A DNA stretch of 41,007 nucleotides, from UHGV virus genome UHGV-0067929. The stretch is one strand, 5' to 3'. The DNA comes from a virus. The notes beneath the pieces were generated by a model, which was not told where the DNA came from, did no database searches, and worked only from the letters and a program-made list of their open reading frames with translations. This document shows, piece after piece, positions 3,100 through 34,506 of this stretch. Every line of letters begins with the position of its first letter. The stretch's first letter is position 1. The position numbers were made by a program, and so were the translations under genes.

Positions 3100-3395
3100 G
3101 CCGCGTCCCTCTGCCCATCAATCTGATCAGCCAGATCCCAGCGGGCGATAATTGCCATTGCCTCGCGCCGGTAGGCATCCATTAGTTCTTCGAACTCAGG
3201 GCTGTCTTTAGCGGCCTCCAGTACTTCCTTGCGAACGCCTTTAACTGTTACAACGTCGAAAGTTGATGCCAGTTGATGAAGCCGGATACTCTCAATCAGT
3301 TCAACTTGTCGGTCATATAGCTGTTCTGACAGGCGGTAGTCCTTGTCGAATGCCAGCATGATTTTTTGAAGATTTTTCTGCTGATTAACGTTCAT
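3096..3395 (-). CDS. hypothetical early protein
   Basis: Start moved to second ATG (3395), which is preceded by GGAGGG with 6-nt spacing; translationally coupled to exonuclease. Confidence 0.5.
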   Translation of the reverse strand: MNVNQQKNLQKIMLAFDKDYRLSEQLYDRQVELIESIRLHQLASTFDVVTVKGVRKEVLEAAKDSPEFEELMDAYRREAMAIIARWDLADQIDGQRDAA

Positions 3396-3550: not shown

Positions 3551-3630
3551 AACTTGTTACCTCGGTCTGTTACCGTTGAGGTAATAATTATGCGTATCTG
3601 GTTTGATGTCAATAGATATGAGTTAAAAAA

Positions 3631-10115: not shown

Positions 10116-10710
10116 GATGCCTGCTGAACCTAAAACCTATAAACGCAAATCAACGCAATTTAAGCCACTAACAGCAATGCAGGAGGCTTATTGCCAGTCA
10201 TACATCAAAACGCCTGAAAACCAGACTCAGGCAGCGATTAACGCAGGATTCTCTCCAAATACAGCGGCAGTTAAAGCCAGTGTCATGATGCGCGATGAAC
10301 GCATTCAAAAACGGATTGCCGAGCTGATGGAAGAGCGCAACAAGCGCCTGCGCGTCAGTGCTGATTATGTCCTGCTGCGCCTGGTGGAAATCGACCAGAT
10401 GGACGTGATTGATATCCTCAACGACGATGGGAGCCTTAAGCCAATCCGTGAGTGGCCGAAAATCTGGCGCACTACGCTTAGCGGCTTTGATCTGTCATCG
10501 ACCATCATGAACATGAACGAGGATTCGATAGAGACAATCCTCAAAAAAATTAAATGGCCTGACAAGGTGAAGAACCTCGAACTGATTGGTAAGCACGTCG
10601 ACGTCAACGCATTCAAAGAACGCCTGGATGTTAATGTGAATGTGACAATTGCTGATCGCATAGCGGCAGCCAGGAAGAGACTGAAAGAACGTCAGGATGG
10701 CAATCAGTGA
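10114..10710 (+). CDS. terminase small subunit
   Basis: Start at ATG 10114; AYCQSYIKTPENQTQAAINAGFSPNTAAVKASVMMR typical of Terminase_2-type small subunits; directly upstream of large subunit. Confidence 0.8.
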   Translation: MMPAEPKTYKRKSTQFKPLTAMQEAYCQSYIKTPENQTQAAINAGFSPNTAAVKASVMMRDERIQKRIAELMEERNKRLRVSADYVLLRLVEIDQMDVIDILNDDGSLKPIREWPKIWRTTLSGFDLSSTIMNMNEDSIETILKKIKWPDKVKNLELIGKHVDVNAFKERLDVNVNVTIADRIAAARKRLKERQDGNQ

Positions 10711-12182
10711 CAGATACAGCGTTATCTCCTGAAGAGCAGTTAATCGAGGATATTGCAGGGTTCACTCACGATCCGCTTGGCTATGCCCTCTATGCGTTCC
10801 CGTGGGGGGAAGAGGGGACTGAACTGGCACATGCTACCGGCCCACGTCAATGGCAGGCTGATGCGTTCCGAGAGATACGTGATCACCTGCAGAATCCAGA
10901 GACGCGCTATCAGCCGCTTATGCTGGCACGCGCTTCTGGTCACGGTATTGGTAAATCCGCATTCATCTCAATGCTGATCAACTGGGGCATGTCCACTTGC
11001 GAGGATTGTAAGGTCGTGGTGACCGCCAACACCGACAACCAGCTACGAACGAAGACCTGGCCGGAAATTATCAAGTGGTCGAACCTTGCTATCACGAAAG
11101 ACTGGTTTACCTGTACTGCTACCGCGATGTACAGCAATGACCCAGGGCACGACAAGCGGTGGCGGGCTGACGCAATACCCTGGTCTGAGCACAACACTGA
11201 GGCATTCGCCGGACTACACAACGAGCGCAAACGCATCATCGTGGTATTCGATGAAGCGTCGAACATTGCGGATCTGGTGTGGGAAGTTGCCGAGGGTGCG
11301 CTAACGGACGAAGACACTGAGATTATCTGGGTGGCGTTCGGAAACCCGACGCGTAATACCGGACGTTTCCGCGAATGTTTCCGCAAATATAAACACCGCT
11401 GGAAAACTGCGCAGATTGACAGCCGGACGGTGGAAGGCACTAACAAACAGCAGTTGCAGAAATGGGTTGATGACTACGGGGAAGACAGCGACTTCGTTAA
11501 AATCCGTGTGCGCGGCATATTCCCGGATGCATCTGAATTGCAGTTTATCCCTACCGGACTTACTGACGAGGCAATGAAACGGGTGGTCACCGCTGCGCAG
11601 GTTGCACATGCTCCGGTGATAATTGGCGTTGACCCGGCATACTCAGGCGTTGATGACGCGGTGATATACCTGCGGCAGGGGCTGCACAGTAAGGTGCTAT
11701 GGACTGGTAACAAGACCACCGACGATCTGATTATGGCGAAGCGTATCGCTGACTTTGAAGACCAGTACCAGGCTGACGCGGTGTTCATCGACTTCGGTTA
11801 CGGTACCGGTCTGAAGTCAATCGGTGACGGTTGGGGGCGTACATGGCAACTTGTTCCGTTCGGTGGCGCGTCTACTGACCCGCAGATGCTCAACAAGCGT
11901 GGGGAGATGTTCAATTCATGCAAGACATGGCTGAGGCTCGGCGGCATGCTGGATGACCAGGAAACTGCAGACGACCTGTCGGCGGCAGAGTACAAAGTTC
12001 GCGTGGACGGTAAAATCGTTATCGAACCGAAGGAAGATATCAAGGAGCGGCTTGGGCGTTCGCCGGGTAAAGGCGATGCGCTACTGCTGACGTTTGCTTT
12101 CCCTGTGTCGAAGCGTCTGCGAATTACCGGGCAGCAGAACCAGCAAGGCAAGGCCATCACAGATTACGATCCCTATGCTTAA
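10707..12182 (+). CDS. terminase large subunit
   Basis: 491 aa; ATPase motifs (ASGHGIGKS, IIVVFDEAS) followed by nuclease-domain Asp cluster (IGVDPAYSGVDD); GTG start overlapping small-subunit stop. Confidence 0.9.
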   Translation: MTDTALSPEEQLIEDIAGFTHDPLGYALYAFPWGEEGTELAHATGPRQWQADAFREIRDHLQNPETRYQPLMLARASGHGIGKSAFISMLINWGMSTCEDCKVVVTANTDNQLRTKTWPEIIKWSNLAITKDWFTCTATAMYSNDPGHDKRWRADAIPWSEHNTEAFAGLHNERKRIIVVFDEASNIADLVWEVAEGALTDEDTEIIWVAFGNPTRNTGRFRECFRKYKHRWKTAQIDSRTVEGTNKQQLQKWVDDYGEDSDFVKIRVRGIFPDASELQFIPTGLTDEAMKRVVTAAQVAHAPVIIGVDPAYSGVDDAVIYLRQGLHSKVLWTGNKTTDDLIMAKRIADFEDQYQADAVFIDFGYGTGLKSIGDGWGRTWQLVPFGGASTDPQMLNKRGEMFNSCKTWLRLGGMLDDQETADDLSAAEYKVRVDGKIVIEPKEDIKERLGRSPGKGDALLLTFAFPVSKRLRITGQQNQQGKAITDYDPYA

Positions 12183-12208
12183 TCCGCTGGTGGGGATAAT
12201 GTCGTTGA

Positions 12209-12257
12209 TATCCTCTGATGAGGATAAAACAAAGCCAGCTCATCGGCTGGCTGTTTG
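12209..12257. terminator. bidirectional terminator region between terminase and moron gene
   Basis: Hairpins TATCCTC/GAGGATA and GCCAGC/GCTGGC separated by AAAACAAA, T-tract on each strand. Confidence 0.5.
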
Positions 12258-12268
12258 TGACATGTCAC
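12257..12268. repeat. 12-bp perfect palindrome GTGACATGTCAC (copy b)
   Basis: Junction after terminase, next to terminator hairpin. Confidence 0.6.
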
Positions 12269-12272
12269 GGTG

Positions 12273-12692
12273 TTATTTAATGGCATTAAATCCAGCGTTG
12301 ATGGCTTCCGCAATATTGATGGCACTTGTTTTATCGAAGTGCCCATTCTGAATAAGCGCCGCATGCAGGCATTGTAACTTCATGTTGTATAAGTGTTCGC
12401 TCATGTAATCATTATCACTTTTTGCTTTAGCGTAAACAGCGCGAGAAATATCAAACACATCGCCTTTTTCCATTTCAGAACGTTGTGCTGTTATCCAGTC
12501 ATGGAACGTAACGCTAGTACCATGGTCTTCGCTAAGAGTTAACCCGGCCAGTCCCTCACTCTGAATTACTTCGTAATGCATTTCATTATTAGCAAAAACG
12601 CCATAAAAAATGCAGTCTTCAGCCTGAACGATACGAGAATATTTTAATGGCCATTCATTTAGATACTTAGCCAACATATCAATTGTCTTCAT
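12273..12692 (-). CDS. hypothetical protein (moron, opposite strand to late genes)
   Basis: 139-aa ORF with AAGGTGAG SD; lies with a tRNA between terminase and portal. Confidence 0.5.
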   Translation of the reverse strand: MKTIDMLAKYLNEWPLKYSRIVQAEDCIFYGVFANNEMHYEVIQSEGLAGLTLSEDHGTSVTFHDWITAQRSEMEKGDVFDISRAVYAKAKSDNDYMSEHLYNMKLQCLHAALIQNGHFDKTSAINIAEAINAGFNAIK

Positions 12693-12802
12693 GATCTCAC
12701 CTTAAAAAAATGCCCGGCGAACTTGGCGAACTGGAAGCAATGAGTTATGCCTTCCGTGGCTGTACTGGTTTACAGCATGAAGTCATCACAATGGCGTCCT
12801 GC

Positions 12803-12847
12803 TGTAAAAAGGGCGGTGATAGTTCTTCAAGGGAAACCATCACCGCC
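12803..12847 (-). terminator. terminator downstream of tRNA-Arg
   Basis: 9-bp stem GGCGGTGAT/ATCACCGCC followed on minus strand by CTTTTTAC. Confidence 0.5.
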
Positions 12848-12890
12848 AAGCACCTGGAACTTCTGGCATCACGGTCCTTAGGCGTGATTC

Positions 12891-12967
12891 TGGCGTGGCA
12901 TGCAGGATTCGAACCTGCGACCAACTGCTTAGAAGGCGGTTGCTCTGTCCAACTGAGCTAATGCCAC
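12891..12967 (-). tRNA. tRNA-Arg (anticodon UCU), phage-borne argU-like
   Basis: 77-nt cloverleaf read by hand: 7-bp acceptor stem GTGGCAT/ATGCCAC, D-arm TAGCTCAGTTGGACAGAGC, anticodon loop CTTCTAA, T-arm GCAGGTTCGAATCCTGC, CCA end; one C-A mismatch in anticodon stem. Confidence 0.8.
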
Positions 12968-13288
12968 AACGCTGAGAGCACTTAGCCTGTTAAGGCGCCA
13001 CACTTTGTCGCGGCTCCATAAATGCTCTCATCGTTGTACCCTCGTCTCTTCCGAGGCGTCACACCGAATCGCCGGGATGGTGAATCCCCGTGCGCGGAAT
13101 AAAACCGCTCGACTTGCACATTCCGGCTACCTGGTTCGTTTGCCCGAGCAAGGGAGGGTGCCCCTTAAACGTATCCAGACCGCTATCGTCGCATGTGCCA
13201 TACGCCGTACTGCTCAAAATAAAAGCTCACTCCACCTGTTCAATTTAACGACAAGCCAGTCAGGTTAGTAACCGGAATGAGCTCTTTA

Positions 13289-13305
13289 GTTACCCGAAAG
13301 GTAAT
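13289..13305. promoter_or_regulatory. operator-like palindrome GTTACCCGAAAGGTAAT upstream of portal operon
   Basis: Same motif family. Confidence 0.5.
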
Positions 13306-13394
13306 AATTCACGCGTTAAATGTCAACCTTCTACGATAAATAAATCATATGTGGTTAAATTGGTAATAATTTAATTGCGTACGGAGTCATTGAT

Positions 13395-13601
13395 ATGTGC
13401 ATGGGTAGCTCACCATCAGTGCCTGCAACACCAGAAGTTCAGGCAGCACCACAGGAGCAGGATGCCGCCGTTGTTGATGCCCGCGACGAAGAAACACGTC
13501 GCCGTCGCGCTGCTGCTGGTCGTAGTTCTACGCTGCTTACCGGTTCTCAGGGCGACACATCAACCGCTAATACCAGCGGTAAAACGCTGCTTGGTCAGTA
13601 A
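13395..13601 (+). CDS. small hypothetical protein upstream of portal
   Basis: 68-aa ORF, GGAG 9 nt upstream; low-complexity Ala/Arg/Thr-rich. Confidence 0.3.
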   Translation: MCMGSSPSVPATPEVQAAPQEQDAAVVDARDEETRRRRAAAGRSSTLLTGSQGDTSTANTSGKTLLGQ

Positions 13602-30540: not shown

Positions 30541-30770
30541 AGTGATCACCTTTGTAGTTAGGTTAATCACCACTACCGACGCCAATCGGTTGGTGGTGAA
30601 CTGTGCAGGGTTGGCGTAACCGGCTACAAAGGACCCGGCGCACCTTTCGGTGCCCCCACACAGCCCACCATAGAATAGGTGCGCTTTACACATAAAAAAA
30701 CCGCTTATGCGGCATATGTGCCTCTGTAGTAATCCGGGACGCCAATCCCGGCACTGGATTTTGCCAGTGC
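30541..30770 (-). ncRNA. structured leader RNA of Bro paralogue 1 (candidate c4-like regulatory RNA)
   Basis: Reverse-complement copy of the same leader; elements at 30721-30729 (mimic), 30624-30632 (anti-SD), 30549-30557 (SD). Confidence 0.45.
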
Positions 30771-31536: not shown

Positions 31537-31766
31537 GCACTGGCAAAATCCAGTGCCGGGATTGGCGTCCCGGATTACTACAGAGGCACATATGCCGCAT
31601 AAGCGGTTTTTTTATGTGTAAAGCGCACCTATTCTATGGTGGGCTGTGTGGGGGCACCGAAAGGTGCGCCGGGTCCTTTGTAGCCGGTAAGACCAACTCT
31701 GCACAGTTCACCACCATCTGATTGGTCTCAGCGGTGGTGATTAACCTAACTACAAAGGTGATCGCC
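31537..31766 (+). ncRNA. structured leader RNA of Bro paralogue 2 (candidate c4-like regulatory RNA)
   Basis: From predicted TSS: two GC hairpins (31536-31573), SD mimic CTACAGAGG (31578-31586), hairpin+U7 (31594-31613), GAAA-capped hairpin (31654-31667), anti-SD CCTTTGTAG in a loop (31675-31683), 8-bp hairpin (31708-31740), SD CTACAAAGG (31750-31758). Confidence 0.45.
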
Positions 31767-34238: not shown

Positions 34239-34468
34239 AGTGGTTACCTTTTAGTCTGGTTAATCACCACTACCGACGCCAATCGGTTGGTGGTGAACTG
34301 TGCAGGGTTGGCGTAACCGGCTAAAAGGACCCGGCGCACCTTTCGGTGCCCCCACACAGCCCACCATAATACGAATGTGGCCGTGCTATACGCATAAAAA
34401 AACCGCTTGCGCGGTGAATGCGCCTTTTAGTAATCCGGGACGCCAATCCCGGCACTGGATTTTGCCAG
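34239..34468 (-). ncRNA. structured leader RNA of Bro paralogue 3 (candidate c4-like regulatory RNA, variant specificity)
   Basis: Same architecture; elements at 34423-34430 (mimic CTAAAAGG), 34321-34328 (anti-SD CCTTTTAG), 34247-34254 (SD CTAAAAGG), all changed in concert. Confidence 0.45.
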
Positions 34469-34506
34469 TGCCTGATTACTATGGCACAAGAGGAGTGCGA
34501 TGTAAA

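Follow-up and report, generated by a model that had tools for sequence, protein, structure and literature searches.

The stretch of DNA analysed here, the UHGV virus genome UHGV-0067929 (41,007 nucleotides (nt) in full, and called the window in what follows), is a phage or prophage of the phiV10/epsilon15 type (Uetakevirus) in which the plus-strand genes for the large terminase and the portal protein are separated by an island of minus-strand features. Region 12100-13500 shows an identity of 94.5% to Escherichia phage HEMP4 and of 97% to phiV10 over the parts that are shared. Read from 5′ to 3′ on the minus strand, the island consists of an operator, a leader, a structured RNA that we call the core, a long-range stem (P7), a tRNA-Arg with anticodon UCU, a hairpin (D), a strong terminator (E), a U-run with a ribosome-binding site, an open reading frame (ORF) of 139 amino acids and a final terminator (Table 1). 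An initial annotation had described an opposite-strand unit in this place, bounded by a terminator and an operator and containing a protein without assigned function, the tRNA and some 320 bp of non-coding DNA, and all of the elements that it named are indeed present where it put them or a few bases away. Beyond these, we describe terminator E, the stem P7, a C-A mismatch in the anticodon stem of the tRNA and the fact that the core is widely distributed. The core, which lies within the non-coding stretch, very probably represents a functional structured RNA family, and its nature and possible role are the subject of this report.

Table 1. Features of the island and its borders, listed by increasing position in the window; the features of the core and of its leader are read on the minus strand.
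Feature	Position	Strand	Description or basis
Large terminase ORF	10707-12182	+	Borders the island
Island terminator	12223-12252	-	U-run on the minus strand; terminator scan
Palindrome GTGACATGTCAC	12257-12268	-	Adjoins the island terminator
139-aa (amino acid) ORF	12273-12692	-	GC 39%; PHROG 4846 (function not assigned)
U-run, ribosome-binding site (AAGGUGAG) and start codon of the 139-aa ORF	12690-12711	-	Sequence
Terminator E	12806-12847	-	14-bp stem, then U-run; strong; terminator scan and sequence
Hairpin D (tRNA 3′ trailer)	12868-12888	-	AUCACG-CCUAAGGAC-CGUGAU; motif in 32/67 contexts
tRNA-Arg(UCU)	12891-12967	-	Anticodon TCT; argU-related; ARAGORN and Rfam tRNA
P7 long-range stem	12967-13036	-	CAACGAUGAGAGCAUU (13021-13036) pairs with AGUGCUCUCAGCGUUG (12967-12982); 15/16 positions pair
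Core structured RNA	13036-13209	-	Covariance model, 140 bits; single copy in the window
P6 hairpin	13040-13056	-	CCUCG-GAAGAGA-CGAGG; covariation-supported
P5 hairpin	13058-13088	-	Loop CACC pairs with downstream GGUG (pseudoknot); covariation-supported
Second variable hairpin of the core		-	Varies in sequence and length
Near-invariant 19-mer GGUAGCCGGAAUGUGCAAG	13113-13131	-	Unpaired; between the two variable hairpins
P2 helix	13176-13180 with 13125-13129	-	Encloses a variable hairpin; covariation-supported
P1 hairpin	13187-13207	-	Covariation-supported
Leader, 80 nt	13210-13289	-	Conserved among epsilon15-like phages
Second promoter-like pair, in the leader	TTGAAC 13238-13243, TATTTT 13216-13221	-	Sequence
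Leader sequence GGTGGAGTGAGCTTTT	13221-13236	-	Resembles the 3′ strand of P7; sequence
Leader motif GTCGTTAAAT	13243-13252	-	Sequence
Operator-like inverted repeat TTACC-N5-GGTAA, TTACCCGAAAGGTAA	13290-13304	.	Overlaps the -10 of the leftward promoter candidate
Candidate island promoter	13298-13326	-	TTGACA (13321-13326), 17 nt, TACCTT (13298-13303); read from the sequence
68-aa ORF, then portal gene	from 13395	+	Borders the island

Structure and distribution of the core RNA

The stretch 12968-13288 had been described as devoid of a convincing reading frame and relatively rich in GC, and either a structured RNA or the promoter of the tRNA was offered as its content. The description holds on both counts, as the only frames present are mechanical ones of 87, 52 and 45 amino acids and the GC content is 53.3% (59.2% within the core) against 48.9% for the window as a whole. 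The first of the two options is borne out by a multi-helix, pseudoknotted RNA that is supported by covariation and recurs in unrelated phages. The second survives only at the margin; a weak promoter candidate does exist, with a -10 hexamer that is poor by consensus and overlaps the operator, but it lies upstream of the stretch, and a promoter scan of 12100-13500, including the interval from terminator E to the 139-amino acid ORF, called no promoter-like site. A search against the 4227 models of Rfam 15 confirmed the tRNA. Other than the end of this tRNA at 12967, it gave nothing for 12968-13290, whether the gathering thresholds were applied or a cut-off of E ≤ 10, and the homologous region of phage cdtI likewise matched no Rfam 15 model. 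Full-text searches of the literature with sequence strings from the core or from the downstream modules returned no paper, and keyword searches returned no description.

When 12968-13290 served as the query of a sensitive DNA search, 86 phage records were found. Outside the phiV10-like phages, the conserved part is a core of about 165-240 nt that is 70-83% identical in unrelated temperate phages, namely those of the P1 type (P1, P7, D6, SJ46 and RCS47), lambdoid phages (cdtI, mEp460, 2H10, Ayreon, Stx2c, Stx2k and some Stx2a phages) and further phages of Klebsiella, Enterobacter and Salmonella. Among complete Escherichia coli genomes, 1840 of 5426 contain a match, at 2474 places in all (1920 chromosomal and 554 on plasmids). 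Every context of the core is phage or prophage. None of the E. coli matches listed carries an RNA annotation, and most records annotate nothing at the core, a few having a hypothetical protein there. Pattern scans of viral and genome collections gave 181 loci and nhmmer 151 copies, with 26 loci added by a later scan; 58 copies with a mutual identity below 93% were aligned. A covariance model was built from an alignment of the family. Apart from a remnant in epsilon15 (39 bits), its 101 matches in 100 loci have scores of 111-166 bits, and it finds one copy in mEp460 and a full-length copy in SPN1S. A search with the model at full sensitivity in mEp460 and in the window revealed no second copy near the rightward early promoter pR or elsewhere.

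The named structure (P1, P2, P5, the pseudoknot and P6) was assessed on a MAFFT alignment of 53 sequences, with 500 shuffles as the reference. Standard pairs occupy 98.3% of the cells, a figure that drops to 27-51% if the 3′ partners are displaced by one to three columns, and changes on both sides of a pair are seen at 11 pairs (102 cells), giving a covariation score of 0.273 against 0.117 for the shuffles. For each of the four measures (paired fraction, both-side pairs, both-side cells and covariation score) the observed value was reached by none of the 500 shuffles. The pseudoknot is supported by a switch at one of its pairs, which is C-G in 46 sequences and A-U in 6. As most of the loci had first been found by means of the 19-mer itself, the scan was repeated with a pattern taken from the 5′ part of the core; the 19-mer was exact in 114 of the 120 loci thus recovered and differed by one base in five, the last being a deletion derivative.

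The length of the core varies between 148 and 180 nt and falls into all three classes modulo three, with insertions and deletions that are not multiples of three, so the core is not coding, and no reading frame is open in all 53 homologues. That the conserved element is nevertheless a protein-coding gene, or else a site acting as DNA (an operator array, a recombination boundary or a single-strand initiation site), is scarcely credible: the stop-free frame that crosses the core on the opposite strand in 33 of the 53 homologues, the hypothetical protein in a few genome records and the location of the core at junctions of mosaic modules could be cited in its favour, and are opposed by the pattern of indels, by compensatory substitutions in the helices, by a strand that is fixed relative both to neighbouring tRNAs (46/46) and to the direction of the operon, and by the lack of annotation in most records.

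Early operons and the RNA cassette

The core sits in early, repressor-controlled operons of three unrelated phage types, the epsilon15/phiV10-like, lambdoid and P1-like phages, and a cI-like gene is its co-oriented upstream neighbour in 55 of 150 loci. The order in cdtI is the cI stop codon, the cI terminator, a promoter (TTGACA, 16 nt, CATAAT) and then the core. This promoter overlaps a site, ATGTACCCTTGAGATACAT, that is similar to ATGTACCTCCGATATACAT in the cI-cro region, and because of this resemblance we read it as the leftward early promoter pL with its operator. The core begins about 55 nt after the predicted transcription start in cdtI, and 5-120 nt after a comparable promoter in other phages; its position in the lambdoid phages, just downstream of pL, is that of the nutL/putL site. 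The early-left genes that follow it there are either yfdP/yfdQ/yfdR-like or a ParB-HTH-type set. No N gene is annotated in the lambdoid carriers cdtI, mEp460 and Stx2a_WGPS2, and eight tested representatives of the genes downstream of the core (lambdoid, P1-like and epsilon15-like) gave no match to the N families. The related phage LLS is also without N, and a put-like RNA has been speculated for it by Casjens, Smith and colleagues (Genome Research 2025, PMC12315714).

The annotation of epsilon15 places a site for the repressor and one for IHF between gp3, the gene on the portal side, and the RNA core. The inverted repeat TTACC-N5-GGTAA that borders the island of the window has 16 matches in the window, where 0.85 are expected from shuffles and no shuffle reached 16; they include those at 3570, 3632, 4344, 6675, 6737, 10082, 13290, 30807, 31393, 31486, 34508 and 34889. 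This repeat is probably the dispersed operator of the phage repressor, including at the sites beside modules for the antisense RNA C4 and its companion isrK. The latter form three adjacent pairs of isrK and C4 antisense RNA (window 30589-30770, minus strand; 31537-31718, plus strand; 34286-34471, minus strand), each scoring 74-80 bits in Rfam, and look like a P1 immI-type antirepressor control module that has been triplicated in both orientations.

P1 carries the core at 71023-71191 of NC_005856, 14 nt after trnI and about 100 nt before ban, within an operon under the C1 operator Oban, and no terminator was found within the 700 nt that follow it. A tRNA lies within 600 nt of the core in 46 of the 150 loci and is co-oriented with it in all 46; it is tRNA-Arg(UCU), 69-131 nt downstream, in 26 loci and a tRNA with a CAU anticodon (annotated as tRNA-Ile2 in P1), 14 nt upstream, in 18. 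This adjacency, together with a stem P7 that ends at position +1 of the tRNA, would suit a core that provides the promoter, 5′ leader and processing scaffold of the tRNA-Arg precursor and is conserved as the travelling companion of the tRNA. Such a passive role is very improbable, being largely refuted by the 104 of 150 loci that have no tRNA within 600 nt; in addition, the order is reversed in P1, where the core is downstream of the tRNA, the core is more conserved than its tRNA context, and the pseudoknot and the 19-mer exceed the needs of a leader. As a separate observation, the epsilon15-like Enterobacter phage Tyrion (L004) has a match to the int-alpA RNA in the same island (3208-3272; 44 bits, gathering score 35.8).

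Downstream of the core, P7 loops out a variable insert, which measures 35-90 nt or more in other loci, and the end of the stem coincides with the first base of the tRNA. Eighteen distinct strand pairs with compensatory changes are found in other loci, the strands CAAC..GAGAGCAYU and AGUGCUCUC..GUUG covarying, for example, as GAGAGC/GCUCUC, AAGAGC/GCUCUU and GAGCGC/GCGCUC. The modules of the cassette were counted over 67 non-redundant downstream contexts, and the motif of the downstream (3′) strand of P7 is present in 54 of them. We rejected a reading of this strand (UGCUCUUUCC) as a boxA element, as the strand covaries with its partner and the boxA pattern ([TC]GCTCTT[TA]A) occurs near the core in 1 of 150 loci. 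Motifs like those of the leader are also found within the P7 inserts of other loci.

P7 is usually followed by tRNA-Arg(UCU) and otherwise by a four-way junction whose closing strands are GUGGUG/CACCAC. Neither the Rfam tRNA model nor ARAGORN recognises this junction in cdtI and other phages, and its fold energy is no better than that of shuffles. The junction of phage ST64B (L214 7465-7583, minus strand) scores 35.1 bits against STnc100 (RF02076; E = 9e-6, gathering score 47), and no STnc100 match was obtained in cdtI, Tyrion, SopranoGao, the loci L171 and L082 or the window, which has the tRNA in this place. STnc100, a family of prophage small RNAs (sRNAs), has recently been tied to the Hfq-associated PasD sRNAs (bioRxiv 10.64898/2026.05.13.724894). 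The match in ST64B suggests that sRNAs of the STnc100/PasD type and the tRNA may occupy the same position of the cassette, and since an STnc100-like module replaces the tRNA downstream of the core in related lambdoid phages, the locus can be viewed as a string of RNA genes.

The next elements are hairpin D, whose frequency is given in Table 1, and a terminator of the GGCGG...CCGCC type, which a strict pattern detects in 33 of the 67 contexts, in all but one of them upstream of the next co-oriented ORF. In the window this terminator E separates the tRNA from the 139-amino acid ORF and is a second, strong terminator of the island, one that the initial annotation had not mentioned. Hairpin D and terminator E together (about 85 nt) resemble in form an sRNA that derives from the trailer of a tRNA and ends in a terminator, and gave no match in Rfam. 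Two further loci contain tRNA-like remains; in L095, a tRNA-like sequence located some 360-490 nt downstream from the core combines canonical D and T arms with an insertion of about 50 nt, and in L101 the P7 insert includes a T-arm-like sequence (GGUUCGAUUCC). Both have the look of tRNAs, decaying or unusual ones, that lie within the RNA cassette.

The tRNA itself is as it had been described, a phage tRNA-Arg with the anticodon UCU, called by ARAGORN (tct) and scoring 68 bits against the Rfam tRNA model (RF00005; gathering score 29). It is 85.9% identical to E. coli argU over tRNA positions 7-77. The claim that its D and T arms resemble argU while the acceptor stem does not is also correct, since the T arm is identical, the D loop has one difference and the acceptor stem differs; we note in addition that the anticodon loop is identical and the anticodon stem is not. 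The allele of the window has a C29-A41 mismatch in the anticodon stem (GCAGU, where phage relatives have GCGGU, with G41), and an identical allele is present in 1 of the 5426 complete E. coli genomes. The codon AGA makes up 6.85 per 1000 codons and 11.5% of the arginine codons in the 42 long ORFs of the window and is concentrated in tail genes and some early genes. The average for E. coli K-12 is about 2 per 1000, so the window uses AGA about three times as often. This lends modest support to the earlier suggestion that the tRNA is there to read AGA; codon supplementation by the tRNA-Arg is plausible, with a modest effect.

The cassette is modular. LLS and ST64B retain pL, P7, the STnc100-like module and terminator E and lack the core; the slot between pL and P7 (LLS, L186 7880-8290; ST64B, L214 7650-7960; both minus strand) is filled by other non-coding inserts of about 110 and 300 nt, respectively, that end in terminator-like hairpins. 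The insert of ST64B has faint sequence echoes of the core and gives no match to the covariance model. This suggests that the slot between pL and P7 is a cargo slot for alternative RNAs. A BLAST search with the LLS leader was too insensitive to count the phages that have the downstream modules without the core. Conversely, P1 has the core without P7 or the later modules. In epsilon15 (L003 2049-2120), a deletion has occurred between two copies of a UUCCCUUGAUGCU repeat, one in the first variable hairpin of the core and the other in the loop of terminator E, so that the two sites are now joined. P7, the tRNA and hairpin D have been lost, along with the greater part of the core and one half of E; the IMG/VR contig L195 carries the same deletion. 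Judged from these genomes, the core is an accessory, dispensable and modular element, LLS and ST64B being viable phages that lack it.

The protein genes that follow the cassette also differ between relatives, and comprise the family of the 139-amino acid protein, the Gp49/66 family (PF13876), a 263-amino acid coiled-coil protein and Tad2-like/DUF2829 proteins (PF11195). In keeping with the initial description of the 139-amino acid protein as one without assigned function, its PHROG has none either, it has no match in Pfam, and its 102 homologues, from prophages of Enterobacteriaceae, are all hypothetical. An AlphaFold2 model (pLDDT 73, pTM 0.42) has a small β-sheet followed by three helices and found no match in the PDB with Foldseek (best E-value 2.1). 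Where the window has the U-run and ribosome-binding site of this gene, relatives have a short hairpin and then AUUUUUUUA. The 139-amino acid ORF occupies the slot that holds Tad2-like and Gp49/66 genes in relatives, and because of its GC content of 39% and the Tad2-like genes in the same slot it looks like an exchangeable accessory gene; by position alone, it may be an anti-defence gene. In P1-like and Klebsiella phages, the Tad2-like/DUF2829 genes, which bear the Thoeris anti-defence domain (PF11195), lie at L069 677-1252 and L005 2511-3032.

Possible roles of the core RNA

The anatomy of the island suggests the following course of events. Transcription would proceed leftward from an early promoter under the control of the operator and would give a single precursor containing the core, P7, the tRNA-Arg, hairpin D and terminator E. 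Cleavage by RNase P at the 5′ end of the tRNA, which abuts P7, would then free the core as an RNA of about 245 nt whose 3′ terminus is the closed duplex end formed by P7, and the 16-bp duplex of P7 may also be cut by RNase III. In P1, the upstream tRNA would instead set the 5′ end of the core. Read-through of terminator E would permit a low or regulated expression of the 139-amino acid cargo gene. The freed RNA, in our proposal, acts in trans by binding, via its invariant unpaired nucleotides, a putative host component common to the Enterobacteriaceae, and might thereby favour lytic development or counter a host defence. We favour a trans effector because the neighbouring modules are RNA products, because the slot of the core can hold alternative RNA inserts and because the core comes and goes among close relatives. 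We would put the probability of this whole statement, processing and a trans-acting accessory early RNA, at roughly 45%.

Several points weigh against it. From the arrangement of the island we deduce the promoter, the cleavages by the two RNases and the stability of the RNA, and the host target is putative. The folding energy of the 323-nt stretch is modestly better than that of shuffles (z = -2.0). The core is not a classical stand-alone sRNA gene, as no terminator directly follows it. Finally, a promoter-proximal site, a strong terminator ahead of the protein genes and carriage by N-less lambdoid phages would fit an antiterminator acting in cis equally well.

The last of these is the main rival to a freed, trans-acting RNA. 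Here the nascent core would bind the RNA polymerase that is transcribing it, in the manner of put, and processive antitermination would carry transcription through E and later terminators into the cargo or early-left genes. The core is always promoter-proximal or in early operons, upstream of the protein genes and co-oriented with them; an intrinsic terminator of the strong kind stands between it and the genes in at least 33 of the 67 contexts, the window included, and the promoter scan found no site between E and the 139-amino acid ORF from which that gene could be served. The lambdoid carriers without N have the core at the nutL/putL position, which accords with the put-like RNA speculated for LLS (PMC12315714), nucleotides that are unpaired and invariant across unrelated phages would suit host polymerase as a target, and the one natural deletion of the core that we examined, in epsilon15, has also lost half of terminator E. 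Set against this, LLS and ST64B keep E and their early-left genes without the core, and read-through in these phages must therefore be independent of it. Each phage has a single copy, with no counterpart on the pR side, unlike HK022, which carries putL as well as putR; in P1, no terminator was found in the 700 nt after the core; the processing signals of the flanking tRNA or tRNA-like module suggest that the core is excised from the transcript; and neither homology to put nor a similar size or architecture is found. On balance, we consider antitermination in cis possible and rather unlikely.

It is much less likely that the core senses a ligand or signal, with control or protection of the variable anti-defence cargo genes downstream by a riboswitch-like aptamer or a nucleotide sponge. 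The junction of several helices, the pseudoknot and the invariant unpaired nucleotides do resemble an aptamer, the core lies in the 5′ untranslated region of ban in P1, and the cargo includes Tad2-like and DUF2829 proteins; yet the conserved core has no expression platform overlapping it, the next terminator or ribosome-binding site is anywhere from about 90 to more than 500 nt away, and the genes downstream are unrelated to one another.

We tentatively raise the possibility, doubtful as it is, that the core stands for a new class of phage RNA that binds host machinery, being either a processive antiterminator that, independently of put, substitutes for N in many lambdoid prophages or an RNA-only factor for anti-defence or host takeover, made along with tRNAs or tRNA mimics during the first minutes of the lytic growth of P1, lambdoid and epsilon15-like phages. 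Were the trans-acting proposal true, the core would join the few known phage effectors that consist of RNA only. Irrespective of its role, P1, Stx-converting and other lambdoid prophages, phiV10/epsilon15-like phages and about one third of complete E. coli genomes carry an elaborate RNA that is unannotated; even in the bacterium that has been studied best, and in its phages, there is thus still a common RNA gene without an assigned function. For early-left expression in the N-less lambdoid phages (the group of SfV, ST64B, mEp460 and LLS), the position of the core provides a concrete candidate. With the covariance model, the RNA can be annotated in thousands of genomes; the model also points to a variable cargo slot, in which a Tad2-like gene, for example, is found.

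Comparison with known systems

The tRNA, the terminators and the operator of the island are ordinary, and the core RNA is outside every curated family. The tRNA has the anticodon loop and the T arm of argU and a D arm that is almost the same, and departs from it in the acceptor and anticodon stems. Non-tRNA RNAs that are matured by tRNA-processing enzymes have precedents in the stable RNAs of the T4 tRNA cluster (species 1 and 2) and in the C4 RNA of P1 and P7. As is proposed for the core, these are co-transcribed with phage tRNAs or shaped like a substrate of RNase P, but there is no sequence relationship, and the C4 and isrK RNAs of the window are located elsewhere and are distinct from the core. 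The likeness to STnc100/PasD concerns the module that replaces the tRNA downstream of the core in related lambdoid phages; the match is below threshold (35.1 against 47 bits) and belongs to this neighbouring module rather than to the core.

The put RNA of HK022, which binds the zinc-binding domain of the β′ subunit of RNA polymerase and suppresses termination with no need of protein factors, invites comparison by its location, just downstream of pL in lambdoid phages without N, ahead of terminators and early-left genes, and by the fact that no dedicated phage protein is apparent for either RNA. It is an RNA of about 70 nt with two stem-loops and is present in two copies per phage (PMC9378689). 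The core differs in having about 170 nt, four supported helices and a pseudoknot, and one copy per phage; its range extends to P1 and to epsilon15-like podoviruses, and there are related phages that lack it. Homology to put was rejected, as the covariance model has no match in the HK022 genome, its best score there being 7.3 bits in a tail gene.

With the GOLLD and ROOL RNAs, the core shares carriage by phages or prophages, a place beside tRNAs in the same orientation, an elaborate fold with variable inserts and the lack of a tie to any one protein gene. It differs from them in that it does not match their covariance models, in its size (about 170 nt as opposed to 500-800 nt), in its occurrence in Enterobacteriaceae, GOLLD and ROOL being found mainly in Firmicutes and other groups, and in its location within repressor-controlled early operons. 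Of the known systems, the core is thus closest in kind to GOLLD and ROOL, and closest in position to put of HK022.

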